From: a phage
DNA length: 64,000 nt
Direction: 5' to 3' (one strand)
Assembly (NCBI GenBank): GCA_018175075.1
Contig: GCA_018175075.1_4100.1
Below, piece by piece: positions 19,412 to 44,333 of the stretch (within the stretch, counting starts at the first letter, position 1; the number at the start of each line of letters is the position of its first letter). The notes under the pieces were generated by a model that did no database searches, was not told the origin of the DNA, and worked only from the letters and a program-made list of their open reading frames with translations. Both the position numbers and the translations under genes were made by a program.

Positions 19412-19428
19412 TAAAAAATCCAGTACTA

Positions 19429-19450
19429 TTAAGTACTGGATGTATAAGGA
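19429..19450. terminator. palindromic hairpin between convergent gene blocks
   Basis: TCCAGTAC-TATTAA-GTACTGGA, no U-tract. Confidence 0.4.
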
Positions 19451-20993: not shown

Positions 20994-21024
20994 CGTATTA
21001 TCTTTCTTTTTAATTAATGTTGAC

Positions 21025-21249
21025 TCATACCCGAACCCATAGATCTTCTACGTTTGTATTGCACAAAACCCATTTGGTTTGTGTTATAATATTACCTATA
21101 CCCATTTGCCCAAACTCTTGAGAGCCTCTACTGTACAACGTACCATCTGACATAAGGGCAAAAACTGTTGTATCAGATGAAGCTATTTTTGTAACAGAAG
21201 GTTGTATGTTCTTTTTTGATGATGTGATAATTCTTCCAAAGGGTAGCAT
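21025..21249 (-). CDS. RCC1-like repeat protein, N-terminal fragment (MLPF leader)
   Basis: GGAGG SD; MLPFGRIITS...QEFGQMGIGN; ends EDLWVRV* where paralogs continue. Confidence 0.65.
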   Translation of the reverse strand: MLPFGRIITSSKKNIQPSVTKIASSDTTVFALMSDGTLYSRGSQEFGQMGIGNIITQTKWVLCNTNVEDLWVRV

Positions 21250-21320
21250 TGTATCCTCCAAATGTAAATCGTTATTATATTTAGGACAAAAAAATGCCAG
21301 TACAAAATACTGGCTTTATT
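21250..21320 (-). promoter_or_regulatory. RCC1-array cassette (diverged copy)
   Basis: GCCAGTAT-TTT-GTACTGGC hairpin, TATAAT, GGAGG SD. Confidence 0.5.
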
Positions 21321-22526
21321 TTATATACCACGACTGGGTATTTTATATAATTGAAATTTAGTGTAATAATCAGAAACTGTTGTACCTGTCGCTTGTGGGA
21401 TATAGCCACTCAAATACACATCCCCTTGATTATCCATATACACATTTGTACATTCACTTGGACAGAATAACTCGATGCTGCCAACTTTAGGTGCATCAAC
21501 TGGAACTACAAATGTAGTACTTGATGTTGTATTACCGCGACCGAGCCTACCATATGTGTTTATACCACACATATAAAGTGAATTGTTAGTTTTAACCGTA
21601 AGACCACCATATGTTAATGAATTTGATTTCATTATCATATCATCTGATATTGGTAGAGTGGAGATTGTAGATAATACTGTCCCTGATGAAGCGGCTGAAC
21701 CATTACCCAAGTTACCTTCCGATTGAATCCCACTTGCACGAACTGTATATGTATTATTCGTGTTGTGTTTAGATACAACCCATGATGCACTCCCACCAAG
21801 TTCATAATGTATAACAGTATTGTTGGCTAATGCACCCATTTGTGTCCATACTCTAATGTTAGTTTCACCATTACTTATACCAAGTGAACCCCATGTGTTT
21901 TGACCAGTTACCCAAAGTGTTTTATCAATTTTCTGCACAATCACTGCACTTGAACCTGTTTTTACACTATCCACATTCGTATTAATTGAAGTAAATGTTG
22001 ATAATCTTGTGGTTGTGTTATTACCAAAATATCCCTGTGTATTTGCCCCCATTCCATATAGCGTACCATTTTGAAGTAAAACAAAAATACCCTCCCCTAC
22101 AATTTGAATGTCCTTAATTTGCGACAATTGTGTTGCATTGAATACTGATGTAAAATATGAAGTACAATCAGTATAAGTACTGACAGTACTTAATCCTGCA
22201 CCAATAGCTCTACCTACGCCACTGTAATAAAATTTATTATCTTCGGTTTGGATTAAATTAAAAGAACCTTGGGCTGTTCTAAAACGTTTTACATTTTGGT
22301 ATATTAAAGTCCACTCTTTTACTTTCGCATTAGGTACACCATTTCCGAATCCATAGTTTTGTGAACTAGTTCCACCTATACCCATTAAGTCTCCATTTTT
22401 ATATAATAGTAAGAGTGCTGTTGCTGGAATAACTGACGCACTATAACCATTGTAAATAAAGATTTCTTTCACTTCAGGAACTTTCATTTTATTTGCGTAT
22501 TTTATCATCCTTGGAAAAGGTAACAT
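21321..22526 (-). CDS. RCC1-like beta-propeller protein with MLPF leader
   Basis: MLPFPRMIKYAN; NTWGSLGISNG, GINTYGRLGRGN, QSEGNLGNGS. Confidence 0.8.
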   Translation of the reverse strand: MLPFPRMIKYANKMKVPEVKEIFIYNGYSASVIPATALLLLYKNGDLMGIGGTSSQNYGFGNGVPNAKVKEWTLIYQNVKRFRTAQGSFNLIQTEDNKFYYSGVGRAIGAGLSTVSTYTDCTSYFTSVFNATQLSQIKDIQIVGEGIFVLLQNGTLYGMGANTQGYFGNNTTTRLSTFTSINTNVDSVKTGSSAVIVQKIDKTLWVTGQNTWGSLGISNGETNIRVWTQMGALANNTVIHYELGGSASWVVSKHNTNNTYTVRASGIQSEGNLGNGSAASSGTVLSTISTLPISDDMIMKSNSLTYGGLTVKTNNSLYMCGINTYGRLGRGNTTSSTTFVVPVDAPKVGSIELFCPSECTNVYMDNQGDVYLSGYIPQATGTTVSDYYTKFQLYKIPSRGI

Positions 22527-22597
22527 AAAATCCTCCTTTATTCATTATACTATATTTAATCAAAAAGAAAAGCCAGTGTTAAGTACTGGCATAAAAT
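22527..22597 (-). promoter_or_regulatory. RCC1-array cassette: hairpin + promoter + SD
   Basis: mRNA sense GCCAGTACTTAACACTGGC...TTAAATATAGTATAATGAATAAAGGAGG. Confidence 0.6.
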
Positions 22598-23767
22598 CTA
22601 AGCAGAAGGCATATTCTTCATCTTAATAAATGAAAATTGTGTACCAGTATTTGTGGTTTGATCAGTAAAATATGAATTACTCCCAGCCCAGTACAATTCA
22701 TTATTGACTATACAATATATAACAGAACTCGAACTCTGTGAATACACACGACTTATATTTGATTGTTCTACTCCAGTACTGAACTGAACTACCCCCAACT
22801 GTGAACTTGGTATTACATTAGTTGGTCTACCTAAACCGTTAACACCCGCTCCACCACCACATGTATATACTCCAGTACTATCAGTTGATATATTAACATA
22901 ACCATTTCCGGCATTTTCAAATAGTATTTCACTGGGAACAACACCAAATCCTGTAAGATCTATTTTCCTGAATGTAGTGTAAACAGTAGAACCACCAACA
23001 CCTCTTCCACCATAATCATTAGAACCAGCCATATAGATACTATATCCAGAACTTCCTAAACATAATAACTGTACGTTGTCATATAAAATTTGCATAGATA
23101 TAACGTTATCAGGAATACTCAATACCGTAAAAGTAGTTAAAGAAGAACTTCCAATATTACTACCAACCGATGTTCCACATCTGTAGTACTTACCGCCTTT
23201 TATATAATGGAACGATGAACCGCCTAACTTATGTGCTCCTATTTCACTTACCCCAGTATCTATAAGAATGGGAGATACAACTTTGTTATTAACACCTAAC
23301 TCAGATCTACTGTTCATACCGAACCCATATAAACGACCATCTAACATCAATATTAGTGTACTACCTGACGTACCTGCTGACGTAAATTCTATATTCTTTA
23401 TTTGCGACACGTCAATACCTACAAATAATGAAGTTACTTCAGTCCAGTTAACATATGAACCACTAGCCCCAAAATATCCACCCATGTATAGTCCGGCACA
23501 ATATAACTTATTATCAACCGTCTTTATTAATGTACCGGATACACACGCCCAAAAATCATCAACTTCATAGGGTACATGTACCCAACCACCTAATACATCA
23601 CTATCATTCCCTGTTCCTAATTTGTAGTTCGATCCAGAACCACGCATATACATATTCCCTGTACTATAAAGTAATCCGACATGTAATTGACTACCATCCA
23701 ATTTCTTTATTTCGGGAAGAGTTGGTTTAATATTTCCGTACTTTAACATTCTTCCAAAAGGTAACAT
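22598..23767 (-). CDS. RCC1-like beta-propeller protein with MLPF leader
   Basis: start at MLPFGRMLKYGNI behind GGAGG; GSNYKLGTGND, NSRSELGVNN. Confidence 0.8.
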   Translation of the reverse strand: MLPFGRMLKYGNIKPTLPEIKKLDGSQLHVGLLYSTGNMYMRGSGSNYKLGTGNDSDVLGGWVHVPYEVDDFWACVSGTLIKTVDNKLYCAGLYMGGYFGASGSYVNWTEVTSLFVGIDVSQIKNIEFTSAGTSGSTLILMLDGRLYGFGMNSRSELGVNNKVVSPILIDTGVSEIGAHKLGGSSFHYIKGGKYYRCGTSVGSNIGSSSLTTFTVLSIPDNVISMQILYDNVQLLCLGSSGYSIYMAGSNDYGGRGVGGSTVYTTFRKIDLTGFGVVPSEILFENAGNGYVNISTDSTGVYTCGGGAGVNGLGRPTNVIPSSQLGVVQFSTGVEQSNISRVYSQSSSSVIYCIVNNELYWAGSNSYFTDQTTNTGTQFSFIKMKNMPSA

Positions 23768-23845
23768 AATTCCTCCTTTATTCATTATACTATATTTAAT
23801 ACAAATAAGAAAGCCAGTACAAAGTACTGGCATAGTTTTATAGTA
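23768..23845 (-). promoter_or_regulatory. RCC1-array cassette: hairpin + promoter + SD
   Basis: GCCAGTAC-TTT-GTACTGGC then TTAAATATAGTATAATGAATAAAGGAGG. Confidence 0.6.
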
Positions 23846-24955
23846 TTATTTCGGCATTGTAATTGCAGACCATGAGTTCGTGGTAATAGGACCTGGCACA
23901 TACAAAAAAGAACCACAAGCATAAATTTGATTATTACCATCAAATACTATACTAAAATGTGCACATGTGTATAATGCTGATTTTTCTGGGTTGTAATTAT
24001 CTAAAGTTAGTGTATTGGTGAATCTACTCAAACCACCACCAGAACCATTTCTACCAAATTCACCAGTACTGTATATCTTTCCTTCGGTTGTTGCGTACAT
24101 ATTAACATATGAAGTCGCACTTGATTTTGATATTTTATGTATCTTACTATCAATAGTAGTGGAGTTAAATGCAAATGGATATACTTGTGTGTTCGTTGTA
24201 ATACCGTTACCAAGTTGACCAATATACTGCCAACCTGCGTTGTATATATTGCTGGCTGAATAAGCAAGAGTACCAGTACTGTTACCACCAAATAGTTTAA
24301 CACTTGTTAACCTGCTTACTAGTGTAGTATACTGTCCGGGACTTACGCCAAGTGAACCATATCCACTGCTCCCGCAACCGAGAAGTTCATTATTTGATGT
24401 TAATATTAATGTGTTATTCTGTGTACCCAATATATCAAGGACTGTATTAGCTCCGGTATTAACAACTGAAACAAAAGTACTCTGAACCGTGGAATACCCA
24501 CCACCGAGTGAATAGTTACCATTCATGCCTCTACCATAAACAATCGAACCACTAGCATCAACGTAGTGCATTGTATCTGCACCAATTGATATCATTTTAA
24601 TATTAGATATATGTGGAAATGAAGAAGTAACATTCAAACCACCCAACGGAATCATAGTATTTCCTGTGCCTAATTGTGTGGTAACTCCATGCATTATGAA
24701 TTCTTCACCCTTGAGATAAAGAATATTGTACGCACCAGCCCATGCATCAGTAACACCTTCTGAAATTAATATCCAAGTATTTCTTGTTGCTGTATTTTCA
24801 ACGTTTAACTGCAAATACGTATTAACCCCACAACCATAAAGTGAGCCATCGCCATAGAGGACGTACAAATTATCAAGACCGCACAGAACTTTCTTTATCT
24901 TTGGAGCTTCAGGTGCAATATTTCCGTACTTAACCATTCTAGCAAAAGGTAACAT
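23846..24955 (-). CDS. RCC1-like beta-propeller protein with MLPF leader
   Basis: MLPFARMVKYGNI; SGYGSLGVS, QYIGQLGNGIT. Confidence 0.8.
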   Translation of the reverse strand: MLPFARMVKYGNIAPEAPKIKKVLCGLDNLYVLYGDGSLYGCGVNTYLQLNVENTATRNTWILISEGVTDAWAGAYNILYLKGEEFIMHGVTTQLGTGNTMIPLGGLNVTSSFPHISNIKMISIGADTMHYVDASGSIVYGRGMNGNYSLGGGYSTVQSTFVSVVNTGANTVLDILGTQNNTLILTSNNELLGCGSSGYGSLGVSPGQYTTLVSRLTSVKLFGGNSTGTLAYSASNIYNAGWQYIGQLGNGITTNTQVYPFAFNSTTIDSKIHKISKSSATSYVNMYATTEGKIYSTGEFGRNGSGGGLSRFTNTLTLDNYNPEKSALYTCAHFSIVFDGNNQIYACGSFLYVPGPITTNSWSAITMPK

Positions 24956-24965
24956 AAATTCCTCC

Positions 24966-25367
24966 TTAAATTTGTGGCAATTGGTATTCAGTTAAAGTCC
25001 ATGTACCAACAACTGTCCCTACTGGAGACATACCAGTGTAGTATAATTTCCCACTCACATATGCAAATAATGCATTGTCATTCGCAGCAACCAACGATGT
25101 TGACGGATCATAAACTACAGAATTTGGAAATTGTGCTTGGACGAAAATTGAAGCATTATTAGATGAATTGTTACCAAGCTGTCCATAATTATTATACCCT
25201 GTTCCAAAAATACGACTTCCATTTCTATATAATAATCCCCTAGGGTTTTGTGAATATGTTTGTATAAATTCAAAATCGGAAACATTAGTTAATTGTAAAT
25301 AAGTACTTTGTGGCGTTAAAGATATCTTATTAGTATTAGATAGAACACCATTTCCTAATTGTCCGTG
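24966..25367 (-). pseudogene. RCC1-like protein, displaced C-terminal 133 codons of the 25336..26145 gene
   Basis: stop-free frame, no usable ATG: HGQLGNGVLSNT...NNYGQLGNNSS...TLTEYQLPQI*. Confidence 0.65.
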
Positions 25368-26145
25368 AATTTTGTGACCCTACACCATATAGCGGATAAG
25401 TATTATCTACATTAAGAACTATACCCAACATATTGTTATATGAAATTATATCAACTGGGTACTGGCCTGTAGGAAAACTATACTTTGTCCAACTCGTCAA
25501 AGTATCAGTAGCAGAACCAGTTAACAATGTACCAGTACTAGTTTTACCACATCTCCATGCTGAATTATCATTTTTAATTATCCAAGTTGGACTATTGAAA
25601 AATGAACTAACCTTTTTAACATTAATATTAACCTGTGTAAATGATGTAAGTGTAGATGAACTACTACCCAACTCATAGGTTGAATTATCACCTATTGCGT
25701 AAAGAACACTATCATTTGTTAGTAAAAACATATTACGAACATTTGGATATATCTCCTTGATATTATCCACATTAAAACCTGAAAAATAAGACGTACAATC
25801 AACAAATGTAGTACTTTGAACTGCCCTAGATGTACCAGTCCAAAAGTTCCAACCTGCATAATAAAATTTATTATCATTGGTCTGAACTAAGCTATATGAA
25901 GCATTCCTTGTGCACCAAAAATTTTTCACATTTTGCATTAAGCGAACCCATTTGGTCTGTGTCGTTGTATTTCCAAGACCGAATATACCAGCATTGTTAC
26001 CGCCAATACCCCACAAATCACCGTTCTTATACAGAATCATCAATGTGTTGTTGGTAAAAGCCGATGGTGCTTGCATTTTAATTACATTAGATTCATATAC
26101 AGGTGCTATATTCCCGTACTTTAACATTCTCCCAAAAGGTAACAT
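25336..26145 (-). CDS. RCC1-like repeat protein with MLPF leader, truncated by frameshift
   Basis: MLPFGRMLKYGNI; NNAGIFGLGNT, DNSTYELGSSS; ends GVGSQNSRTIRKWCSI* inside a repeat motif. Confidence 0.75.
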   Translation of the reverse strand: MLPFGRMLKYGNIAPVYESNVIKMQAPSAFTNNTLMILYKNGDLWGIGGNNAGIFGLGNTTTQTKWVRLMQNVKNFWCTRNASYSLVQTNDNKFYYAGWNFWTGTSRAVQSTTFVDCTSYFSGFNVDNIKEIYPNVRNMFLLTNDSVLYAIGDNSTYELGSSSSTLTSFTQVNINVKKVSSFFNSPTWIIKNDNSAWRCGKTSTGTLLTGSATDTLTSWTKYSFPTGQYPVDIISYNNMLGIVLNVDNTYPLYGVGSQNSRTIRKWCSI

Positions 26146-26153
26146 ATTCCCTC

Positions 26154-27329
26154 CTATTCCGGTAAAATCATTTTCTTCATTTTAACTTGTTGTGTACCTG
26201 GACTCTGTTCCTGAAACATAGACCCGTTACCACACCAGTACACCTCATTAGTACCCACTAACGCGTATAACACACCAGAACCACCTTGTACTGAAAATGC
26301 ATTAACATCTGGTGCAACATCCATATCCTCATATTGTACCTGGTGGTAATAAGATCTTTCTGATGCAGTAGTAACAGGCCAACCAAGAGGAACACCACTA
26401 CCACATGTATAAAGTTTACCATTCTGTGTCATTGCCATTATAAAATAATTCAAACTGTGATTGTTCATCGACCCAGCATCTGGTATAATACCACTAATTG
26501 CAGGAGTGGTACTAAATGGACTCATGATAATAGTAGTGTCGCCATACCCTATTCCTAAACAATAATCAGTGTTTTTTCCAGCAGTATATACATTAATCTT
26601 ATTTCTATTGGATGTAAGTACTGAAGTGGTTTCAGGAGTACATGAAATACCAATAACTGTTCCAGATATATCAGTACTTACTGTAAATGTGGATAGTTTA
26701 GATGAACTTGAACCTAGGTTATAACTTGCATTATTACCACATCTGTAATATTGTCCATTTTTTACAAAATGGAAAGCACCACCCGACTGTGTTCCTGCGA
26801 TTAAAGTAACACCCGTGTTAATCAAAATAGGTGTTGATTTTATTCCAGTAACACCCAATTCACCCCCAGCATTACGGCCTATCCCATATAAGTTACCATC
26901 ACTTAACAGAATTAACAAAGAACCATTGGATGCGGTAGTTTCGGTAGAAGCTATATCTTGAACTGTAGTAAGGCTTGGAATTGTAGACAATATAGATGTA
27001 ATATTAGTCCATCCGGGAACAGGTGATGCAGATACACCGACATAGTTCATTTGCCCTGCTAAGTAAAATTCTCCGTCAGTCGTAAGTATAATTGTCCCTG
27101 CGAATAAACACCAAACATTAGAAACTTTATATGGACACTGTACCCACCCATTTTGTACATACTCCGTACTATTATTTCCTAGCCTATAATGTGCACCACT
27201 TCCACGTAGATATAAGTTACCACTATCAAATAACATACCCATATGTGATGACGATGTACTAATCTTTAATACACCAGAAGGTGCAGGTTTAATATTTCCA
27301 TACTTAACCATTCTTGCAAAAGGTAACAT
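26154..27329 (-). CDS. RCC1-like beta-propeller protein with MLPF leader
   Basis: start at MLPFARMVKYGNI; GAHYRLGNNS, RNAGGELGVTG. Confidence 0.8.
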   Translation of the reverse strand: MLPFARMVKYGNIKPAPSGVLKISTSSSHMGMLFDSGNLYLRGSGAHYRLGNNSTEYVQNGWVQCPYKVSNVWCLFAGTIILTTDGEFYLAGQMNYVGVSASPVPGWTNITSILSTIPSLTTVQDIASTETTASNGSLLILLSDGNLYGIGRNAGGELGVTGIKSTPILINTGVTLIAGTQSGGAFHFVKNGQYYRCGNNASYNLGSSSSKLSTFTVSTDISGTVIGISCTPETTSVLTSNRNKINVYTAGKNTDYCLGIGYGDTTIIMSPFSTTPAISGIIPDAGSMNNHSLNYFIMAMTQNGKLYTCGSGVPLGWPVTTASERSYYHQVQYEDMDVAPDVNAFSVQGGSGVLYALVGTNEVYWCGNGSMFQEQSPGTQQVKMKKMILPE

Positions 27330-27399
27330 ATTTCCTCCTTTATTCATTATACTATATTTAATCAAAAAGAAAAGCCAGTACTCTGTACTGGCCTATATT
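27330..27399 (-). promoter_or_regulatory. RCC1-array cassette: hairpin + promoter + SD
   Basis: same ~70-bp cassette. Confidence 0.6.
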
Positions 27400-28137
27400 T
27401 TAGACTGAATTGTTAGGATAATATCTCCCACGTCCCCATATTATTCGCACAGCACCACCACCAGCAGCCGTATAAGAAAAATTATCCCATATACTACCAC
27501 CACCACCATACATCTTACCAGCACCACCACTACCAGCACCACCATTATATGAACCATCGTATCTACCGCCAATACCATTAGCACCTTGAACAATGATACC
27601 AGTACCACCACCCGTACCAATGAACGAGGTATTATAGAATGCACCACCACCACCGCCGCCGCCAGCACCATTTTCACCAGTGATTGCATCTCCGTTACCA
27701 CCTTTACCAGTGTAGCCACCAGCACCACCACCAATGACTGCACCACCACTTACACCAGCGTTGCCCCCATTACCACCACCATCATTAATAGCGTTAGCAG
27801 CTTTCCCACCTAGTCCACCAACCCTATATTCACCAGTGAAGCTAACACATAGTTTTTCAGTTCCACGATATAAACCGTTTTCAACTGCTGTAGTAGTGTT
27901 GGGATGTGTAAGAGAAACACTTAAGTACTCACCACTAGTAACCGGAATATTATTACGCCACGATAAGCCGCCACCAGCACCACGTTGACCACCCGGCGAA
28001 ATAACACATACTGATATTTCGGTAACGCCAGCAGGAACTGTAAATTGTGTTGTTCCTATTGTCGTGATTAATTGTTCACCATGTGGCTTATATTCAATTT
28101 TATTCCCGTACTTAACCATTCTTCCAAAAGGTAACAT
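27400..28137 (-). CDS. glycine-rich (Gly_rich-type) protein with the same MLPF leader
   Basis: MLPFGRMVKYGN; FTVPAGVTEISVCVISPGGQRGAGGG then GGxGG tracts; no RCC1 motifs. Confidence 0.75.
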   Translation of the reverse strand: MLPFGRMVKYGNKIEYKPHGEQLITTIGTTQFTVPAGVTEISVCVISPGGQRGAGGGLSWRNNIPVTSGEYLSVSLTHPNTTTAVENGLYRGTEKLCVSFTGEYRVGGLGGKAANAINDGGGNGGNAGVSGGAVIGGGAGGYTGKGGNGDAITGENGAGGGGGGGAFYNTSFIGTGGGTGIIVQGANGIGGRYDGSYNGGAGSGGAGKMYGGGGSIWDNFSYTAAGGGAVRIIWGRGRYYPNNSV

Positions 28138-28210
28138 AATTCCCTCCTTTATTCATTATAATATATTTAATACAAAAAAGAAAAGCCAGTACTCTGTACT
28201 GGCTTTTACA
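28138..28210 (-). promoter_or_regulatory. RCC1-array cassette: hairpin + promoter + SD
   Basis: same ~70-bp cassette. Confidence 0.6.
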
Positions 28211-29401
28211 TTACAATTGTCTAGGTGTATCCAGTACATATCTATTTGTACGAGGACCACCATCATCATGCGTTCCGGTTGAATATATATTTTTCATATC
28301 AGCAGTTAGGAAAGTACGATACGAACCGCGATATATTTTAATTTTATCATACATAGAATATGTTATTCCTGACGGCAATGGACATGCAGTAAATTTACCA
28401 ATGGTAACATTAGAACCAACACCTAATGTACCAGCATAACCACTCGCATTTAAACCAGTTGCATATACACCTGTACTCGTAACTAGTATACTAGATTGTG
28501 ATGCATATCCAGTATGGATTGAATAATAAGTTCCTGATGGTAATGTAGTACTATTATTCCCTAATACTGCTAGTGCTGTACTATTCGTAGTGTTATTACC
28601 CCATGCCCCATTATTAGCTAATCCACCAACTAGAAACTGACGTGCTCCTGTATTTGGATTCTCCACTAAAGCACTGACAGCACCAAATGAACAAACAGTA
28701 TATTGTAATGTTTTTGTATATGTGGTACTTGGCTTATACAAAGTATATTCATTAAATGGTGTCCATGTGGTACTAGTACTTATGCCAGATGTACTACCAC
28801 CAATATATAAATTATTTTGTGTATCAAAAAACATTGCACAGTAATTTGTTGACTGTATTTGTGCAATATCTACATCTGGTGTTACCGCTTTAACAAATGA
28901 ACCATCTGATATTTGATAAGTAGTTCCTGTACCATCTGCGAATTGTCTAGCACTATTCCACCCTGTACTCCATATTGTATTATTATCCATTAAGAAAGTA
29001 AACCACGTAGTACCTGCATACATCTGTTTAATTGAAGTACTTGAACTTTGTGTGTACAAATTTTCAATATATTGGTTATAACTTAAAAATGATGTAGTAC
29101 TAGTTTCTAAACCAATATGACTACCATATCCACAATAAAAATAATTTAAGTCATTATCTTGTACTAACAAAGTTCCTTGTGTCATCCAGCAATCTTTGAC
29201 ATTTTCTCTAATTAATGTCCACGACCTTACTGCATTATTATTTCCTCTACCAAACTTCCCATAACTATTACTGCCTCGTGCGTATAGTTGACCGTCGGTA
29301 TAAAGTACAACAACCTCAGTATCAGTTGGTATTATTTTCTTAATTTGTAGTGGTACAGGCACAATATTCCCATAATTCATCATTCTTGCAAAAGGTAACA
29401 T
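28211..29401 (-). CDS. RCC1-like beta-propeller protein with MLPF leader
   Basis: MLPFARMMNYGNI; SNSYGKFGRGNN, GYAGTLGVGS. Confidence 0.8.
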   Translation of the reverse strand: MLPFARMMNYGNIVPVPLQIKKIIPTDTEVVVLYTDGQLYARGSNSYGKFGRGNNNAVRSWTLIRENVKDCWMTQGTLLVQDNDLNYFYCGYGSHIGLETSTTSFLSYNQYIENLYTQSSSTSIKQMYAGTTWFTFLMDNNTIWSTGWNSARQFADGTGTTYQISDGSFVKAVTPDVDIAQIQSTNYCAMFFDTQNNLYIGGSTSGISTSTTWTPFNEYTLYKPSTTYTKTLQYTVCSFGAVSALVENPNTGARQFLVGGLANNGAWGNNTTNSTALAVLGNNSTTLPSGTYYSIHTGYASQSSILVTSTGVYATGLNASGYAGTLGVGSNVTIGKFTACPLPSGITYSMYDKIKIYRGSYRTFLTADMKNIYSTGTHDDGGPRTNRYVLDTPRQL

Positions 29402-29472
29402 AATTCCCCTCCTTATTCATTATACTATATTTAATACAAATAAGAAAGCCAGTATCAAGTACTGGCCTATAT
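29402..29472 (-). promoter_or_regulatory. RCC1-array cassette: hairpin + promoter + SD
   Basis: same ~70-bp cassette. Confidence 0.6.
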
Positions 29473-30642
29473 TTAAACTGGCGAATCTAATATAAATTCT
29501 AAACTACTAATGCCACCATATGTGACATCTGTTCCCGTGCTATATACAAAATTACCATCAGTTATATAAGTTCGGTTATAACTACCTGCCATCTGTGACT
29601 TACTATAATCAAACCCATCAGGTACGATTGCTTTGGTATATACTAATGCATTAGTAGATGTACCAATACCTAACATACCAGCTTGTGTAGATTGATTGTA
29701 GCCGCAACAATATATACCATCTGTTGTAGCAATAACTTGGTTATAATATGAAGTATTGTTAGCAATGCTTACTACATCACCAGGTGGCATTAGTGATGCT
29801 GTTTGTACCTCAAATGCTCTATAATCTTTGAGAGAACCATCTTTCCCATCTGCTTGTGCACCAAATATTCTTGAACCACCATTTGCGATGATAGTTTTAC
29901 CAGTGGGATCAGTGCCTATTGCCATTGCCATTGAAGTACCATTATTCACATAGTACTTTATATTAATTGTATTACTTAAGCTGGTAGGAGCACCATAATA
30001 TATATTATATAACTTACTTCCTGAACTTGTAACTGCATTGACTCTTCCTGTATAAAATAACCATCCTTGGTTTGTAACATAACCGTGCATTAAATTACTT
30101 GCAAACAATTTAACAGGTAATTGATTTGCTGCGGTAGGAACAGTACTTTTGACGAATCTACCAGAAACATGGTTAATTGTTGTCCCATCACCCAACTGAC
30201 CATCCGACCCTACTCCAGTACTCCATATTGTTTGGTCTGATAGTAACACACTTGTAGTCTGATAACTAACGGCTATATCTAATATTGGTAATGTTAATGT
30301 ATTGAATATAGGCATAGCAGATGTCCATATTGATACTCCTGACCCTTTCATACCAACAGTTGTTGAACTTCCACTGTACCATATTTCATTATTGCTTTTC
30401 TTAACAACTATCGACGTGGCACCCATCCAAAAATCTTCAACACCAGAAGTACTAAAAGTCCATGTAGTAACAGTATTTTTGTGACCTAAACCCAAAATAC
30501 CATATGCATTATCACCACGCACATATAAATCACCACTGTTTGTTAAAACAGCAACATTATAGTTGTTAGCAAGTATTTTTTTAATATTTGGTTTATCAGG
30601 TGCAATATTCCCGTACTTAAACATCCTCGCAAAAGGTAACAT
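29473..30642 (-). CDS. RCC1-like beta-propeller protein with MLPF leader
   Basis: MLPFARMFKYGNI; DNAYGILGLGH, GSDGQLGDGT, TQAGMLGIGT. Confidence 0.8.
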   Translation of the reverse strand: MLPFARMFKYGNIAPDKPNIKKILANNYNVAVLTNSGDLYVRGDNAYGILGLGHKNTVTTWTFSTSGVEDFWMGATSIVVKKSNNEIWYSGSSTTVGMKGSGVSIWTSAMPIFNTLTLPILDIAVSYQTTSVLLSDQTIWSTGVGSDGQLGDGTTINHVSGRFVKSTVPTAANQLPVKLFASNLMHGYVTNQGWLFYTGRVNAVTSSGSKLYNIYYGAPTSLSNTINIKYYVNNGTSMAMAIGTDPTGKTIIANGGSRIFGAQADGKDGSLKDYRAFEVQTASLMPPGDVVSIANNTSYYNQVIATTDGIYCCGYNQSTQAGMLGIGTSTNALVYTKAIVPDGFDYSKSQMAGSYNRTYITDGNFVYSTGTDVTYGGISSLEFILDSPV

Positions 30643-30711
30643 ATTTCCTCCTTATTCATTATACTATATTTAATACAAATAAGAATGCCAGTATCAAGTA
30701 CTGGCATTATG
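30643..30711 (-). promoter_or_regulatory. RCC1-array cassette: hairpin + promoter + SD
   Basis: same ~70-bp cassette. Confidence 0.6.
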
Positions 30712-31821
30712 TTATTTTGGTAAATCAATTTTAGTAAAGACTGCAACATCTGCACTTGCACCTGGAATGGCGTAATACGATCCAGTACTATATACATTCC
30801 CGTCTTTGGTTAATAATGATGTTAATCCGTCACTAAAAGCAACATCACTAATCTCACTAACTTCTACAGGTAATTGTAAATTAGCAGCACTATAGATAGC
30901 ACCCGTTTGAGAATTGTTTAATCCCAAACCACGGTTTCCCCCAATACCTTTCTGATATGCACTAGTTAATATAATTTGCGTAGCCGTGCTTGTTGCCTCT
31001 GAATTTGTCATAAACAAAGGTGAATTATTAGGTAAAGTACTTACAGGAACTGCTTTGAATGTAGTTGAATCTGAACTAAGAAAGTTTGGAGTTGTACCAC
31101 ATGTGAAATATGATGTACCATTATAGTAATTGAGTGTATGTCCACCAATAGCTGCATCTATTACACCAGAACTACGCAGTCCCCAAATGTTAACTTGTGT
31201 TCTGTTCCCTGTGCCATGTAATCCACGGTCATTCCACCCTGAACTATATAACTTATTATCTATGCTAATATACATACTATCATTAGGAGTAGACATAACT
31301 TTACGCACATTAGAAGCACATAGTGTTAATGTATATATTGATGAAGAACCAATCCCCAATACACCACGGTATCCATTAGCCCCAGCACCATAGAGTACTG
31401 AACTTGAACTTAGTACAAATATTACACCACTATTGCATACAATATTAGCAATTTGATTCACTGGTATTGTATTTGTAAACCACTCGGTTCTATCAACTAA
31501 TGTAGTACTGTAAGAAGTAGTTGTAGAAGATGTGAACCAGTACGTTTGACCTGATGTCCATATCGTATTATCATTTTTAATAATAACAAGTGTTCGTCCT
31601 CCAGTGAAAAAATTAGAAACATCTGCACTTACTAATATCCATGAAGATACCGTGTTGGTATTACCATTTCCAGATTCACCACCTTGATTTCTGCCTATGT
31701 AATACAATTCATGTGAATCAGTCAATACGAATTGACCTTGAGTAGAAGCACCAACTTTAATTATATTTTTAGGACCAGAGGTAATATTCCCATAATCAAA
31801 TAGTCTTACAAAAGGTAACAT
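30712..31821 (-). CDS. RCC1-like beta-propeller protein with MLPF leader
   Basis: start at MLPFVRLFDYGNI behind GGAGGG; RNQGGESGNGNT, NGYRGVLGIGS. Confidence 0.8.
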   Translation of the reverse strand: MLPFVRLFDYGNITSGPKNIIKVGASTQGQFVLTDSHELYYIGRNQGGESGNGNTNTVSSWILVSADVSNFFTGGRTLVIIKNDNTIWTSGQTYWFTSSTTTSYSTTLVDRTEWFTNTIPVNQIANIVCNSGVIFVLSSSSVLYGAGANGYRGVLGIGSSSIYTLTLCASNVRKVMSTPNDSMYISIDNKLYSSGWNDRGLHGTGNRTQVNIWGLRSSGVIDAAIGGHTLNYYNGTSYFTCGTTPNFLSSDSTTFKAVPVSTLPNNSPLFMTNSEATSTATQIILTSAYQKGIGGNRGLGLNNSQTGAIYSAANLQLPVEVSEISDVAFSDGLTSLLTKDGNVYSTGSYYAIPGASADVAVFTKIDLPK

Positions 31822-31829
31822 ATTCCCTC

Positions 31830-33032
31830 CTATTGTTGCCATAACTGCGTTGGCATTAATGTTAGTGTAGTAATACTATAAGTGCCATCAGGCAATCTAC
31901 CACCATTACCATTCCAGCCACCACATGCATATAATTTATAATCTTTAGTAATTATTATGGTTCTGCTCCAATCTTTAGATGCCATAAGAACATTGTCATA
32001 ACCACCACTTATTGCACTAAGATTAAAAATAGCCCAAGTCTTAACTAATGTATTAGTTCCATTACCTTCTTGACCATATGAGTTAGGACCACTACTTCTA
32101 ACATATGGTGCGTATTGTGCCATAGGTGAACCAATTGATGCATTTCCCATATTACTTGGACAAATAAAATTACTGTACTTACTTACATCAACCGTGACCG
32201 ATGTATTCCTAATTGGTGTTAGCTGATTTACTGATGTAGTCGTACCATTACCAGCTTGTCCAGTATTGTTAGACCCACTATAATATACAGGCCCACCAGT
32301 AGTAAACCACCAAGTAACATTGTATGTAGTACTAATATGTTCTACATTACTAATCACGAATTTGTTCAAATATACAACAGAACTACCACCACATCCACTT
32401 TCACCAAAGTTATCCTTACCACAAAACCATGCATCTTTATTTGATTTAATATAGTGCGTTCCTTGTAATGAACATGCCATATCTATAACTTCACCCATAT
32501 TAGTCATAACTGTTAGTGTAGGGATTGAATTTTGATTACCCGACCCACATTCACCATTAGTATTTTTTCCACACGCAATTACTCTACCATCTGTTAATAA
32601 TATTCTAGTACTTTCACCTATATATACACTCTTGATCATATTAGCCATTACGCCAATTTTATTAAATGAAGCAGTAACATCAGTCCATGTTCTCAAATAA
32701 CCACTAACAGGTGTTGCATCTCCATAATCAGAAAATGCACCCACCGACCCAGTGTAGTATATTTTATTATCCAAATCAACCATCAATGAACCATGAACAC
32801 CCAGCCAATAGGCTGCACAGTTACGTGCAAGTACAGTAAATGACGGAACTGCTGCTGAATTCCCAAGACCAAATTGAGACATGTTATTACTACCATAACC
32901 ATATAAAGTATTAGTTGGGCTATGTAGATACATACAGTTTGTATAATGTTGTTGTAAAACATCTGAGAACTCTATAGGTTCTGGCCCTGGTGCAATATTA
33001 CCGTACTTAACCATTCTAGCAAAAGGTAACAT
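31830..33032 (-). CDS. RCC1-like beta-propeller protein with MLPF leader
   Basis: MLPFARMVKYGNI; NNMSQFGLGN, NNTGQAGNGT, NSYGQEGNGT. Confidence 0.8.
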   Translation of the reverse strand: MLPFARMVKYGNIAPGPEPIEFSDVLQQHYTNCMYLHSPTNTLYGYGSNNMSQFGLGNSAAVPSFTVLARNCAAYWLGVHGSLMVDLDNKIYYTGSVGAFSDYGDATPVSGYLRTWTDVTASFNKIGVMANMIKSVYIGESTRILLTDGRVIACGKNTNGECGSGNQNSIPTLTVMTNMGEVIDMACSLQGTHYIKSNKDAWFCGKDNFGESGCGGSSVVYLNKFVISNVEHISTTYNVTWWFTTGGPVYYSGSNNTGQAGNGTTTSVNQLTPIRNTSVTVDVSKYSNFICPSNMGNASIGSPMAQYAPYVRSSGPNSYGQEGNGTNTLVKTWAIFNLSAISGGYDNVLMASKDWSRTIIITKDYKLYACGGWNGNGGRLPDGTYSITTLTLMPTQLWQQ

Positions 33033-33104
33033 ATTTCCCTCCTTTATTCATTATATTATATTTAATCAAAAATAAAAGCCAGTACTTGAGTACTGGCATA
33101 TCAA
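33033..33104 (-). promoter_or_regulatory. RCC1-array cassette: hairpin + promoter + SD
   Basis: same ~70-bp cassette. Confidence 0.6.
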
Positions 33105-34271
33105 TTACGAAAAACGTGGATCATCAAGAACAAACACGGTACTACTTGGACCACCTTGTGTGGTGACAGCACTAGTACTGTAAAGAAAGTTACCATCTGT
33201 CATATAAGTTCTACGATTCGTACAAATAACTCTTACTTTATTCATATCGATATCAGGATTAGGTAATGGACATGAAGTATACACTGATACATCAGTACTT
33301 GTTCCTATTCCCAGCGTACCTTCATTTGTGGTTGAACCGCTATTCAACCCACTAGCATATATACCACTGCTTGTAATAACAAAAGTGGCGTAGAATGGAG
33401 AACCTTCACCTATATTTAATTTAGTTCCAGGTGGTTGTCTTGCCGCAGCAACCGCACCATATGCTTTCCCACCAGATGTGGCAAGATTACCAAGAGCACC
33501 ATACTGTTGTTGTCCACCATTATACACTGTGTTAGTGCCATCACTGTTAGTGTGGATACCAATAGAATTATAGTTACTGTTGCTATATACTAAAGCGGCA
33601 TTAGAAGTAACTGTATTTCGTGTATATACTTTATATTGTTGGGTAAAATTACCACTAGTGGACGTACCCTGTACAGTTCCAGTGTAGTATATATATCCGT
33701 CTGTACCAATGAATGAGTGCATAACACTACCTGCAAAAATTTTTTCTGGAGTAACACCTGACGGTATTGTTGATTGTACAAATCTACCCACTACATTTGT
33801 TGTTGTATTATTTCCCAATTGACCGGAGTCACCATAACCACTTGACCATATGGTATTGTTCTCAAGAAGAACACTAATTGATAATCTTGATAAAGCTATT
33901 TCTTTAACATCACTTTCTAATGTATCAAAAAATGAAGTACAATTTGTCCAAGTGTTCACTACGCTAGAACTAACACCAATTTGTTTATTATCACCAGAAC
34001 TATAATAATTCCCATCATATGTTTGTATAAGTATAACAGAACCACCAACCCATACTTTATCAACTGAACCAAACGTTCTTGTCCATGTGGTAACTATATC
34101 CCCGCTATTATTACCCAATCCAAAGCAACCACTACTATCTACGCCTCGTACATATAAATCTCCTGAAGTCATCAGAACTGCACAGAATGATTGTGCACCT
34201 TTAACATCTTTAATTGGCTCTGGTTCAGGTGCAACATTTCCATAATCAAACATTCTAACAAAAGGTAACAT
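33105..34271 (-). CDS. RCC1-like beta-propeller protein with MLPF leader
   Basis: start at MLPFVRMFDYGNV; DSSGCFGLGNN, GDSGQLGNNT, NEGTLGIGT. Confidence 0.8.
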   Translation of the reverse strand: MLPFVRMFDYGNVAPEPEPIKDVKGAQSFCAVLMTSGDLYVRGVDSSGCFGLGNNSGDIVTTWTRTFGSVDKVWVGGSVILIQTYDGNYYSSGDNKQIGVSSSVVNTWTNCTSFFDTLESDVKEIALSRLSISVLLENNTIWSSGYGDSGQLGNNTTTNVVGRFVQSTIPSGVTPEKIFAGSVMHSFIGTDGYIYYTGTVQGTSTSGNFTQQYKVYTRNTVTSNAALVYSNSNYNSIGIHTNSDGTNTVYNGGQQQYGALGNLATSGGKAYGAVAAARQPPGTKLNIGEGSPFYATFVITSSGIYASGLNSGSTTNEGTLGIGTSTDVSVYTSCPLPNPDIDMNKVRVICTNRRTYMTDGNFLYSTSAVTTQGGPSSTVFVLDDPRFS

Positions 34272-34319
34272 ATTTCCTCCTTTATTCATTATATCATATT
34301 TACCCCATAAACAAAACCC

Positions 34320-34348
34320 TTGACAACCTTCCAGTACTGGTGTACTAT
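34320..34348 (+). promoter_or_regulatory. sigma70-type promoter of the small-gene array (divergent from RCC1 array)
   Basis: TTGACA-N17-TACTAT, CAGTACTGG in the spacer. Confidence 0.55.
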
Positions 34349-34373
34349 AGAAGGAATATAAGGAGAACTACAC

Positions 34374-34601
34374 ATGACAAATACTCTTAAGTACTACATT
34401 AATACTCTAAATGAACTAGAGTACGCGAAGTTTCTCGCGGATAGTTCGTGGCTAATTGAGCTAAAAAATTATAATAGTCCAGGATGCACCCTTATGATGA
34501 ACAATGCAATTGATACCCTCATTGTGAGTATTTTACACAGCAACATCTGCGGGGATAGAAACAAACAATTATCAAAAATCTTAGTACTGCTATCTATATG
34601 A
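34374..34601 (+). CDS. small protein, YY/LIYRY tandem family
   Basis: 75 aa; AAGGAG SD after the 34320 promoter; MTNTLKYYINTL... Confidence 0.6.
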   Translation: MTNTLKYYINTLNELEYAKFLADSSWLIELKNYNSPGCTLMMNNAIDTLIVSILHSNICGDRNKQLSKILVLLSI

Positions 34602-40654: not shown

Positions 40655-40685
40655 AAACTATTTTAAAAGTACATGTAGAAAGTAC

Positions 40686-40745
40686 TTGCACCGTACTGAT
40701 AAAAGCGTATAATGTTTTACATCGAGAGCGGGAACACTTCCCGCT
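40686..40745 (+). promoter_or_regulatory. mini-gene promoter + 5'UTR hairpin unit
   Basis: AGTACTTGCAC..TATAATGTTTTACATC + AGCGGGAA-CAC-TTCCCGCT. Confidence 0.6.
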
Positions 40746-40768
40746 ACACTTTAAAAGAGATGAAAACG

Positions 40769-41131
40769 ATGGCGACTCAAATCAATAAAATCATGCTTAA
40801 CCTGGTAAACTTCCGCGATGAGATGAAAGGTCTTCCGGCTGAAACTGTAAAAATTCACATTGCAGCTTATCGGGAACTTATTGCAATGTTGCCGCTTAAG
40901 CGTGAACAATACGCCGCTACTTTGATGCTGGATTCAATGATCCATGTAATGATCTCAAATGATTTAACGATGGTTTATCAGTACATGGGAGAAAATTTCG
41001 CGGTGTGTAGTAAGCCAGTACCAGGGATGGCAACTACTGAGGAATTGCACGGTTTAAATTTAAAGCAAGATGCATGGGATAATATGCCTCGTTTCCTGGT
41101 ATGGGCTGACAGTGGCAAAATTTACAAATAA
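40769..41131 (+). CDS. hypothetical protein
   Basis: 120 aa from MATQINK; the track start 40712 lies inside the -10 box. Confidence 0.6.
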   Translation: MATQINKIMLNLVNFRDEMKGLPAETVKIHIAAYRELIAMLPLKREQYAATLMLDSMIHVMISNDLTMVYQYMGENFAVCSKPVPGMATTEELHGLNLKQDAWDNMPRFLVWADSGKIYK

Positions 41132-41145
41132 GTTTAATAAAGTAC

Positions 41146-41204
41146 TTGCAAACTATGTTTAATGGCGTATAATGTTTTACATCAGGTGGGGAATAGTTCC
41201 CCAC
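41146..41204 (+). promoter_or_regulatory. mini-gene promoter + 5'UTR hairpin unit
   Basis: TTGCAA-N16-TATAATGTTTTACATC + GTGGGGAA-TAG-TTCCCCAC. Confidence 0.6.
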
Positions 41205-41224
41205 TATATAAGAGGATTAAAAAA

Positions 41225-41464
41225 ATGGCTAAATCAAAAATGTTCTTAGGTCACAAAAACAAAACTCATTGGAATGTAAGCCTGTGGATTAATAACGATG
41301 AGGGATTGTATCGGTTGGCCCTGGATTTTATTAACGACAACACTAATCGCAATGATGCGGCCCGTCATATGATGTTATTTTTAGAACAGACTGGACAAGA
41401 TAAAACACCGGACGGATTCAAATATAGCACTACTGCGATCCGTGCGGCGATGGTTGGAATGTAA
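41225..41464 (+). CDS. hypothetical protein (paralog of 43265..43504)
   Basis: MAKSKMFLGHKNKTHWNVSLWINNDEGLY...TPDGFKYSTTAIRAAMVGM. Confidence 0.7.
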   Translation: MAKSKMFLGHKNKTHWNVSLWINNDEGLYRLALDFINDNTNRNDAARHMMLFLEQTGQDKTPDGFKYSTTAIRAAMVGM

Positions 41465-41554
41465 TAGAATAGAATTTATTTAAAGTACTATCGCAAAAAA
41501 TGATAGTACTTTATAATAGTGTTTTATTCATACACCAACGATAAGGGCAACAGC

Positions 41555-41818
41555 ATGAATATTAAGTATTTTGCGACGCGTGAACAAGCTCGGATCGCTG
41601 CACGCCAGGACGGGGCAACGTTTAAAGATATGGGCGTACAATCGGAACGTGGTAAACGTTGGGCCATTGTAAAGCGTAGTACCGCCAGATCATTACAGTA
41701 CTGGTTAGCGGCCTTAAAAAGTCCCGATAGTGTATCGCGTCGAGTGGTAGAAATAAAGCTCGACCGAAAGGGCAACCGCGTGACCGTGTACCGTACTAAA
41801 AAGATTGCAGTACTATAA
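41555..41818 (+). CDS. hypothetical protein (paralog of 54831..55226)
   Basis: MNIKYFATREQARIAARQDGATFKDMG...DRKGNRVTVYRTKK. Confidence 0.65.
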   Translation: MNIKYFATREQARIAARQDGATFKDMGVQSERGKRWAIVKRSTARSLQYWLAALKSPDSVSRRVVEIKLDRKGNRVTVYRTKKIAVL

Positions 41819-41826
41819 AAAAGTAC

Positions 41827-41885
41827 TTGCAAACTCTGTTTAATGGCGTATAATGTTTTACATCGAGAGCGGGAACACTTCCCGC
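41827..41885 (+). promoter_or_regulatory. mini-gene promoter + 5'UTR hairpin unit
   Basis: TTGCAA-N16-TATAATGTTTTACATC + GCGGGAA-CAC-TTCCCGC. Confidence 0.6.
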
Positions 41886-41906
41886 CTATAACCTGGAGTA
41901 ATAAAA

Positions 41907-42137
41907 ATGACTAATATGTATATGACTGAAGTTAAAACCGTAAAAGATACTACCACAAATAAAGTTACTTACTTACAGCGGATCTGTGGTGTATGGCAAC
42001 GTATCAGCAAATCAAAGTACTATAAATTAACATCATATGCAAACCGTTCTGATTCATTCAGTACTGAAATAAAAGGTAATAAAGTACACCAATACGGCAC
42101 TTATTATTATTACAGCCTGGACGCGATTGCAGTATAA
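41907..42137 (+). CDS. hypothetical protein
   Basis: 76 aa; promoter + GCGGGAA/TTCCCGC hairpin + GGAG SD. Confidence 0.65.
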   Translation: MTNMYMTEVKTVKDTTTNKVTYLQRICGVWQRISKSKYYKLTSYANRSDSFSTEIKGNKVHQYGTYYYYSLDAIAV

Positions 42138-42167
42138 GCAGTTTACAAATCTTTACAATTGCCGGTA

Positions 42168-42260
42168 TTGACTTATTTTGTCAGTACTGGCATAATGTAT
42201 TCATTGGCAGATAAGCCGTAGCCCATAGGGTGCGGGAGTGTATCTATAGAAAAATTAGTT
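42168..42260 (+). ncRNA. GGGTGC-core RNA element, copy 3 (with promoter)
   Basis: TTGACT-N17-CATAAT then ..GGCAGAUAAGCC..GCCCAUAGGGUGC. Confidence 0.35.
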
Positions 42261-42340
42261 TAGTATAGTTACAATTGTGCACCCGGTGGGTTAGCTGTTG
42301 TCATGGGGTATATTATGCCAGTACTGGATAGTGCTGTCAA
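42250..42340 (-). ncRNA. GGGTGC-core RNA element, copy 4 (with promoter), convergent with copy 3
   Basis: TTGACA-N17-CATAAT then ..ACCCACCGGGUGCACAAUUGUAACUAU. Confidence 0.35.
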
Positions 42341-42384
42341 TACTTTTTTAATATTCAGTACTGAAAACTATTTTTAAAAAGTAC

Positions 42385-42530
42385 TTGCAAACTATGTTTA
42401 AAGGCGTATAATGTTTTACATCAGGACGGGGAACGAAATAAGTAACTTCCCGTTAAGTAGCCCAGGAGTAAGGCACACGAAAAACTCCCCTGATAAAATA
42501 GTTTGACAATTGTTTTTAAAAGCGTATAAT
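42385..42530 (+). ncRNA. conserved ~80-nt leader RNA L1 between tandem promoters
   Basis: TTGCAA..TATAAT, AUCAGG..ACGGGGAA/UUCCCGU..UAAGUAG..GGAG/CUCC..CCUGAU, then TTGACA-N16-TATAAT. Confidence 0.4.
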
Positions 42531-42562
42531 ACTTACATCAACTACTGAATGAGGGTTACAAA

Positions 42563-43174: not shown

Positions 43175-43185
43175 TTTAAAAAGTA

Positions 43186-43245
43186 CTTGCAAACTAAGTT
43201 TAAAAGCGTATAATACTTTATATCGAGGCGGGGAATGGTTCCCCG
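43186..43245 (+). promoter_or_regulatory. mini-gene promoter + 5'UTR hairpin unit
   Basis: TTGCAA-N16-TATAAT + GCGGGGAA-TGG-TTCCCCGC. Confidence 0.6.
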
Positions 43246-43264
43246 CTCAAACGAGGATTTAAAA

Positions 43265-43504: not shown

Positions 43505-43561
43505 TATTCAGTACTGAGATAATGGCGGGGAATGGTTCCCGCCTTTACTGAGGGTTATCTA

Positions 43562-43849: not shown

Positions 43850-43866
43850 GTACTAAGGATTATATA

Positions 43867-44326: not shown

Positions 44327-44333
44327 AAAGTAC

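Follow-up and report, generated by a model that had tools for sequence, protein, structure and literature searches.

A repeated intergenic cassette with a predicted terminator and a predicted T4-late-like promoter in an RCC1-like gene array of an Asteriusvirus

In T4-type phages, promoter-early stem-loop (PeSL) cassettes (Arbiol et al. 2010, PMC2839356; Comeau et al. 2014, PMC4122927) are thought to drive the modular shuffling of genes via homologous recombination. ATAAATA late promoters and a gp55-like sigma factor have been predicted for the related phages CBB and GAP32 (PMC5259590). Group 2 jumbo phages, including subgroup 2.2 with its mostly gammaproteobacterial hosts, are all reported to encode sigma factors and a gp33 ortholog; the sigma factors are of a minimal single-helix-turn-helix type and/or RpoD-like, and a PCNA-type clamp is typical (PMC7824862). 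Here we analyze a cassette that recurs between the genes of an RCC1-like array in a 64,000-nucleotide stretch of phage DNA (contig GCA_018175075.1_4100.1 of GenBank assembly GCA_018175075.1), hereafter the window. We consider it likely that this cassette, read on the minus strand, combines a terminator, a T4-style late promoter and a ribosome-binding site, and that genes have been swapped, gained and lost at these spacers. Among described elements, the PeSL cassettes of T4-type phages appear to be the closest known system.

Similarity to sequenced genomes places the window in an Asteriusvirus, one of the E. coli jumbo myoviruses of the 121Q/PBECO4/phAPEC6 type, with a genome of ~350 kb. Its left flank (1-21000) is 96-98% identical to many 121Q-type phages across >87% of its length, whereas the best coverage of region 21000-34400 by any phage record is ≤36%; the array is therefore the most variable locus of an otherwise conserved genome. 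For comparison we used the Asteriusviruses G17, 121Q and EC22.5-2 and the more distant jumbo phages fENko-Kae01 (Klebsiella), SE_PL (Salmonella) and Hallingskeid (Erwinia), whose array proteins are ~28-31% identical. EC22.5-2, a complete genome of 352 kb, served for genome-wide motif scans. In the literature on Asteriusvirus, 121Q, RaK2, Sharanji and fEgEco12 we found no description of the cassettes, nor of promoters in the genus, and the cassette seems new to that literature; only terminator annotations in the GenBank record of G17 touch on its hairpins.

Anatomy of the cassette and its array

The array (21321-34271, minus strand) holds 11 full-length genes that all open with ATGTTACCTTTT (MLPFxRMxKYGN...) and start at 34271, 33032, 31821, 30642, 29401, 28137, 27329, 26145, 24955, 23767 and 22526; a truncated member begins at 21249. 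Alignment of the 100 nt upstream of every start revealed, on the minus strand, seven full cassettes, one hairpin-less copy at the array head and one diverged ninth copy. A full cassette consists of a hairpin, a T-run, TTAAATATAGTATAATGAATAA(A)GGAGG and ATG, and the whole spacer spans ~65 bp. TAAATA sits 3 nt upstream of TATAAT, TTAAATA-N3-TATAAT lies 12-15 nt downstream of the stem, and a strong Shine-Dalgarno (SD) sequence, AAAGGAGG, is followed 4-5 nt downstream by the ATG. The TAAATA core is present in all nine copies of the window. With up to three mismatches allowed, the 18-mer TATAATGAATAAAGGAGG occurs seven times in the window, always on the minus strand within the array (0.13 expected), and the hairpin GCCAGTAC-NNN-GTACTGGC also seven times (0.16 expected); a repeat finder returned the same cassette families.

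At the head of the array, the copy at 34272-34302 carries TAAATATGATATAATGAATAAAGGAGG without a terminator hairpin (TAAATA 34302-34297, TATAAT 34293-34288, SD AAAGGAGG 34283-34276, ATG 34271). The first full cassette, at 33033-33097, has the hairpin GCCAGTACTCAAGTACTGGC at 33097-33078, a T-run, TAAATA at 33064-33059, TATAAT at 33055-33050, the SD at 33045-33037 and the ATG at 33032. The same elements make up the cassettes at 30643-30705 (hairpin 30705-30687, TAAATA 30672-30667, TATAAT 30663-30658, SD 30653-30647, ATG 30642), 29402-29466 (hairpin 29466-29448, TAAATA 29433-29428, TATAAT 29424-29419, SD 29414-29406, ATG 29401) and 28138-28203, which precedes a 245-aa member (hairpin 28203-28185, TAAATA 28169-28164, TATAAT 28160-28155, SD 28150-28142, ATG 28137). 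They recur at 27330-27392 (hairpin 27392-27374, TAAATA 27360-27355, TATAAT 27351-27346, SD 27341-27334, ATG 27329), at 23768-23831 (hairpin 23831-23813, TAAATA 23798-23793, TATAAT 23789-23784, SD 23779-23772, ATG 23767) and, with the stem weakened to 6 bp, at 22527-22590 (hairpin 22590-22572, TAAATA 22558-22553, TATAAT 22549-22544, SD 22539-22532, ATG 22526). The diverged ninth cassette at 21250-21314 keeps the hairpin (21314-21296), the T-run (T7) and CTAAATATAATA (cTAAATA 21283-21278), followed by the SD GGAGG (21259-21255) and the ATG at 21249 of the truncated 74-aa member; its TATAAT register is lost, and the same variant is found in 121Q and EC22.5-2.

Three junctions on the same strand lack the cassette and are overlapped or closely coupled. 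At 31821-31842 the upstream gene, ending at 31830, overlaps the ATG at 31821 (SD AGGAGGG), an arrangement shared with G17 and EC22.5-2. The junction at 26146-26165 has an 8-nt gap, the SD AGGAGGG and an ATG at 26145, and its 121Q ortholog has a full cassette. At 24956-24975, the SD AAGGAGG and the ATG at 24955 follow a 380-nt stretch behind a truncated 269-aa member, and the EC22.5-2 ortholog has a full cassette. A first-pass annotation of the window had described a cassette repeated through the array, with eight gaps carrying it, a diverged ninth copy and three cassette-free junctions. This picture stands in all respects except that one of the eight gaps, the array head, has no terminator hairpin. 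It also suggested looking for the same cassette before structural genes elsewhere; in the complete EC22.5-2 genome the whole cassette (18-mer leader plus hairpin) was not found outside the array, and only the TAAATA core and the architecture recur. In an Rfam search of the cassette no family reached its gathering score, with only sub-threshold chance matches, and an exact-pattern scan of IMG/VR with TAAATANNNTATAATGAATAA matched 116 stretches, the 80 listed being single matches in unrelated AT-rich contigs with no array.

The one ~400-aa member searched against Pfam (33032-31830) is an RCC1-like beta-propeller above the RCC1 cut-off; the 245-aa member (28137-27400) has no RCC1 or other Pfam match and shares the N-terminus common to the array. 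That N-terminus, MLPFxRMxKYGN within the first 13 codons, is present in all array members and reads MIPFxRIxxYGN in the more distant phages; it may be a virion-attachment peptide borne by variable bodies. Mass spectrometry found the array proteins in virions of phAPEC6 (PMC7247149), and late expression of the array is therefore expected. Two members have decayed: 25336-24956, where the 269-aa truncated paralog is followed by 380 nt without a long open reading frame (ORF), and 21249-21025, a 74-aa stub upstream of a separate 298-aa gene (20993-20097).

A candidate late-type promoter

We favor reading the AT-rich part of the cassette as a putative -35-independent, T4-late-like promoter whose best-supported core is TAAATA, not TATAAT. 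A promoter of this class had been proposed in the first-pass annotation, which centered it on TATAATGAATAAAGGAGG and called that word nearly invariant. The class is supported here, while the evidence sits on TAAATA (TTAAATAT, just upstream) and not on TATAATGAATAAAGGAGG. The 18-mer is nearly invariant inside the window; three copies from sister phages have TATAAC-AAATAAAGGAGG instead, and the leader after the hexamer is wholly different in the other phage groups. GAATAAAGGAGG is simply leader plus Shine-Dalgarno, unconserved between phage groups.

TAAATA is rare overall and concentrated upstream of genes. The window has 23 copies where composition would predict ~138 (~6-fold depletion); nine of the 23 belong to cassettes, and some of the rest stand before ORFs, such as those at 7031 and 10097. 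EC22.5-2 has 223 copies (both strands, 352 kb) against roughly 900 expected. This depletion looks like counter-selection of a promoter word outside promoters. Outside the array of EC22.5-2, TAAATA lies 20-49 nt upstream of start codons 49 times in the sense orientation and 4 times in antisense. The top enriched upstream 8-mers there are ATAAATAA, TATAAATA, AATAAATA and CTAAATAA (14-15.5-fold), and the enriched word of the lineage, as seen in this genome, is nTAAATA. Among the genes behind it are those for the major head protein (with a perfect TATAAATA), the large terminase, a baseplate wedge protein, a tail fibre and several virion structural proteins. A terminator followed by TAAATA, with stems unrelated to that of the cassette, also precedes other late genes of EC22.5-2; of 50 TAAATA sites outside the array, 6 or more have this arrangement, compared with 3 of 436 control positions. 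One such site in the window, on the plus strand at 10070-10131, reads GGTTGAC-TTCG-GTCAGCC, T8, gTAAATA and SD before the ATG at 10132. The terminator-then-TAAATA architecture is general, and the cassette sequence is local to the array.

In all seven phages the array head reads gggTAAATA-N3-TATAWT, the hairpin is absent and the conserved block starts exactly there; a promoter is required at this position because the neighboring genes diverge. We surveyed the 88 family genes of these seven arrays for TAAATA 15-45 nt upstream. It is present before 57, and the other 31 have neither element, being coupled: hairpin and TAAATA co-occur or are jointly missing, array heads excepted. TATAWT stands exactly 3 nt downstream of TAAATA in 49 of the 57 and is absent from 8, three of which read TATAAC.

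It is possible, if unlikely, that TATAAT is instead the -10 element of a promoter without a -35, used by host sigma70 or a phage RpoD-like sigma, with TAAATA as mere AT-rich context and the array expressed early, in the middle period or continuously. TATAAT is a perfect -10 hexamer, its context GTATAATG is identical to that of the phage early promoters, TATAWT is so widely retained, and Asteriusviruses are reported to encode an RpoD-like sigma (PMC11895373). Against this, the cassette has neither a -35 nor the TGn of an extended -10: the -35 position reads CTTTTC or TTTCTT, as the first-pass annotation had remarked, and the bases before TATAAT are TAG. All bona fide early promoters of the window have CTTGCA or TTGACA at 17 nt, and the middle-type promoters have GGGACA. 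Three family copies have lost the critical last T (TATAAC) and five lack the hexamer, yet all eight retain TAAATA. In the Asteriusvirus copies, moreover, a start 7 nt past TATAAT would coincide with the SD. We therefore favor a reading in which TAAATA is the recognized element and TATAWT the region of initiation. In T4 late promoters initiation occurs ~6 nt after TATAAATA. Early or middle timing would also sit poorly with array products that are virion proteins.

Several points weigh against a T4-style late promoter. The cassette 8-mer ATTAAATA agrees with the T4 consensus TATAAATA at 6 of 8 positions. The downstream TATAAT/TATATT is itself conserved over three phage groups, in the 49 of 57 copies noted above. 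The distance from TAAATA to the ATG in the cassettes, 24-28 nt, is rather short compared with the genome-wide spacings, which peak at 30-39 nt. And the gp55-like gene was found in the relative EC22.5-2 and lies outside this window. That gene, at 217492-218331 (L007:17492-18331), has PHROG matches to phrog_12791 ("sigma factor for late transcription"; 2.7e-154) and phrog_234 (8.4e-18). Its presence in a close relative counts in favor of the late-promoter reading and accords with the motif and gp55-like gene predicted for CBB and GAP32 and with the sigma factors and gp33 ortholog of group 2 jumbo phages. Its product had no Pfam match, and a phmmer search of the EC22.5-2 ORFs with a T4 gp55 query found nothing; no PHROG match to a sigma was found among the genes searched around the EC22.5-2 head genes.

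The other promoter classes differ from the cassette. Early promoters of the form AAAAAGTACTTGCA-N17-TATAAT-GTTTTACAT occur in at least 22 near-identical copies before small ORFs on the plus strand (window 40681-59606); their sigma70-type pattern (AGTACTTGCA-N17-TATAAT) has the clear -35 that the cassette is missing. A search for AGTAYTTGMM-N17-TATAAT returned ~22 sites at 40.6-59.6 kb and none in the array. This second repeated regulatory family is possibly a true PeSL-like early system. Middle-like promoters read GGGACA-N15-tGtGCTATAAT, and the cassette has neither early nor middle upstream elements. The gp55-like sigma gene of EC22.5-2 is preceded by a middle-type GGGACA-N15-GGTGCTATAAT, and similar motifs (GAGACA/GGAACA...tGtGCTATAAT) stand before several other genes of that genome. 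The arrangement of these motifs suggests an early to middle to late cascade.

The putative terminator hairpin and the proposed exchange of genes

The hairpin and T-run, which the first-pass annotation did not recognize as a terminator, are best read as a putative intrinsic terminator. The stems of internal cassettes are G+C-rich and 6-12 bp long with loops of 3-7 nt, and a T-rich tract lies directly 3' in 8 of 8 hairpin-bearing copies. The hairpin begins 5-15 nt past the stop codon of the co-directional upstream paralog, and none is present at the array head. A consensus terminator scan of the region found 18 terminator-like hairpins, those of the cassettes included, against 7.3 expected, and the G17 GenBank record labels the homologous hairpins as ARNold terminators. 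In predicted folds the hairpin dominates each intergenic RNA (hairpin region -9 to -21 kcal/mol), with whole-cassette z-scores of -1.7 to -4.2. Among 31 distinct cassette copies from seven phages in three phage groups, 93.4% of stem cells are paired, against 18-44% in register-slid controls. Double-sided changes occur at 5 of 10 stem pairs (for example GCCAG/CTGGC to GCTAG/CTAGC, GACAG/CTGTC or GTCAG/CTGAC), and none of 500 shuffles matched the covariation score. The G+C-rich stem of 8-10 bp, short loop and U-rich tail directly after a stop codon are those of intrinsic terminators; in contrast, many copies have an interrupted U-tract (UUUCUUAUUU), and the inner stem AGTAC/GTACT is nearly invariant over the three phage groups, which a plain terminator does not need.

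G.U pairs were considered as a strand call and set aside: ~12 wobbles favor the sense strand, but six C.A loop-closing cells would be wobbles on the other strand. Since this evidence is not robust, the orientation of the cassette rests on the T-run. Sequestration of the SD by the post-hairpin U-tract in read-through transcripts, which would restrict translation to mRNAs begun at the cassette, was likewise rejected as a general feature, with z ~0 in most copies and in the other phage groups and U-tract and SD variants that do not co-vary. Two copies (30686-30647 and 29447-29406, minus strand) combine the U-tract CUUUCUUAUUU with the SD AAUAAGGAGG and show 10 nt of complementarity between them (z -2 to -3). 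The palindrome CCAGTACTGG at 34331-34340 was rejected as a hairpin remnant, being unconserved in G17, 121Q and EC22.5-2. A further hairpin with the arms of the cassette hairpin (ATCCAGTAC-TTAA-TAGTACTGGAT plus a T-run) lies just outside the array at 19418-19441, between two plus-strand genes.

Could the array instead be one long transcript from its head, without internal promoters, the hairpins stabilizing or processing the mRNA or weakly attenuating it and the AT-rich part with the SD being a translation-initiation region under gene conversion? The three translationally coupled junctions would fit, interrupted T-runs (TTTCTTATTT) would terminate imperfectly, and the U-tract can pair with the SD in some variants. 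We regard it as very doubtful, in that the internal AT-rich element is the same sequence as the array-head element, where initiation must happen, and TAAATA is genome-wide an oriented, positioned and otherwise avoided promoter-like word. The terminator-then-TAAATA arrangement also precedes other late genes with unrelated stems, and U-tract:SD pairing is no better than shuffled in most copies.

Conservation of the cassette exceeds that of the genes around it. Mean pairwise nucleotide identity is 86% for the cassette and 83% for coding nucleotides 1-39, so that the first ~39 nt of each gene prolong the conserved island; it is 52-54% for the remaining coding sequence, 50% for the 3' ends of the upstream genes and 52% for shuffled sequence. 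A spacer far better conserved than the genes it separates cannot have been left over neutrally from duplication. That the similarity merely survives from recent tandem duplication or from gene conversion, the spacer itself having no function under selection, is thus highly improbable: tandem gene duplication has been proposed for 121Q (PMC5646251) and the cassette is limited to the array, but gene bodies have diverged to saturation around an 86% identical spacer, the architecture with its compensatory stem changes is kept in three phage groups despite different leaders, and away from the array heads no gene has the hairpin without TAAATA or the reverse.

The putative late-promoter cassettes also coincide with the limits of homology between phages. 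Within the array, most ends of the blocks of at least 300 bp shared with G17, 121Q or EC22.5-2 lie in the hairpin (start+63..+78) or where the conserved N-terminal codons stop (start-19..-47), and a few lie at coupled junctions. The pattern is suggestive and not proof, since conserved islands extend any alignment up to them and block ends at cassettes are partly expected from alignment mechanics; this counts against the exchange part of our reading. With letters for ortholog groups at ≥80% identity and dots for coupled junctions, the gene order is N D.A G B C H.I.E J O K in the window, P D.A G F L B C H in G17, F L A Q B C R M S I.E K in 121Q and F T U V.W D.A X Y B Z M C E J a in EC22.5-2. 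Orthologs A, E and I are preceded by a cassette in one phage but coupled to the upstream gene in another. These orders argue for whole modules having been inserted, deleted and moved between phages, by shuffling rather than recent amplification, as paralogous proteins within the window are just 25-39% identical. The first-pass suggestion that the cassette is a recombination substrate would thus apply to exchange, insertion and deletion between phages and not to recent amplification of the array.

We rate as quite unlikely a more specific proposal, in which the cassette and the first ~39 coding nt form the standardized exchange joint of a diversity-generating system for virion-surface RCC1-like proteins, swapping late promoter-gene-terminator modules between co-infecting jumbo phages. 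The modules would share the N-terminal anchor MLPFxRMxKYGN, PeSL-like mini-circles would possibly be a route, and a phage factor recognizing CAGTACTG, a word that contains the near-invariant core CAGTAC...GTACTG, might stimulate exchange.

Related words are abundant throughout these genomes. The palindrome AGTACT occurs 283 times in the window against ~22 expected from composition (for example at 33081, 33089 and 47221/47243). In EC22.5-2 (L003-L010) it occurs 919 times against 119 expected, and CAGTACTG 204 times against ~3.5. AGTACT is found in non-coding DNA and in every frame of coding DNA, with an excess of 1.2-1.5-fold over the sub-words at each word level, and AGTACT/CAGTACTG is present both in the inner arms of the cassette hairpin (CCAGTAC/GTACTGG) and in the early promoters. 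Possible explanations of the excess are a protein-binding, modification or recombination signal. Other palindromes are absent from EC22.5-2 (CCATGG 0 against 36 expected under a Markov model; AGGCCT 0 against 11), which is consistent with restriction-site avoidance.

Proposed function and comparison with known systems

In the model that we propose, the hairpin GCCAGTAC-loop-GTACTGGC and its T-run would end or attenuate transcription of the upstream paralog. TTAAATA-N3-TATAAT would then act as a -35-independent promoter resembling T4 TATAAATA, with host RNA polymerase recruited to it by the phage gp55-like late sigma. Transcription would start within or just past TATAAT to give a leader of ~15-20 nt, and translation would proceed from the SD AAAGGAGG and the ATG. 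Each cassette-flanked RCC1-like virion gene, or coupled pair, would thereby be an autonomous late transcription unit. We infer that the ~100-bp island of cassette and ~39 coding nt is the site where homologous recombination inserts, deletes and swaps whole genes, and recombination there would in turn keep the cassettes alike.

The cassette reveals no new type of mechanism. If the model is true, it provides a promoter and terminator map for poorly studied 350-kb coliphages, with three classes of promoter, an early one (AGTACTTGCA-N17-TATAAT), a middle-type one (GGGACA...GCTATAAT) and a late one (TAAATA). It would account for the RCC1-like array being the most variable locus among genomes that are 96-98% identical, and would extend the idea of mobile regulatory cassettes, developed for early ORFan regions in T4-type phages, to jumbo phages and their late virion-associated genes. 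For phage engineering, the cassettes would offer a naturally insulated unit of expression and natural crossover points at which virion-decoration genes could be exchanged.

In lambdoid phages, a moron is a lone accessory gene that sits between essential genes with a promoter and terminator of its own and is often expressed from the prophage. The array genes resemble morons in that each would be an autonomous, insulated unit that can be added or removed without polar effects. Unlike morons, they are virion-protein paralogs of a lytic jumbo phage, arrayed together with one standardized cassette.

With T4 late promoters (TATAAATA; gp55 sigma, gp33 and gp45 clamp; Geiduschek and Kassavetis 2010, as cited in PMC5259590) and the ATAAATA promoters of GAP32 and CBB, the cassette appears to share a lone AT-rich -10 element without a -35. 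It also shares a position close upstream of virion genes, in a lineage that has a gp55-like sigma. In contrast to the T4 promoters, its core is the hexamer TAAATA with a variable preceding base, and an additional conserved TATAWT follows 3 nt downstream.

PeSL cassettes correspond most closely in overall design. Both are small repeated intergenic composites that run from one stop codon to the next SD and start and combine a terminator stem-loop with a promoter. Both are crowded in the most plastic region of the genome, at the boundaries of indels and replacements between close relatives. The PeSL promoter, however, is a strong sigma70 early promoter with a -35, a -10 and an AT-rich upstream element, whereas the predicted promoter of the cassette is of the late TAAATA type with no -35; for this reason the cassette falls outside the PeSL definition on this point. 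PeSLs mostly flank small ORFans, whereas the cassette flanks virion-associated RCC1-like paralogs of ~390 aa. Mini-circle formation and promoter and terminator activity have been measured for PeSLs; the promoter and terminator of the cassette are predicted from sequence. Finally, the stem-loop of the cassette is always upstream of the promoter, and its island of homology reaches ~39 nt into the N-terminal coding sequence.

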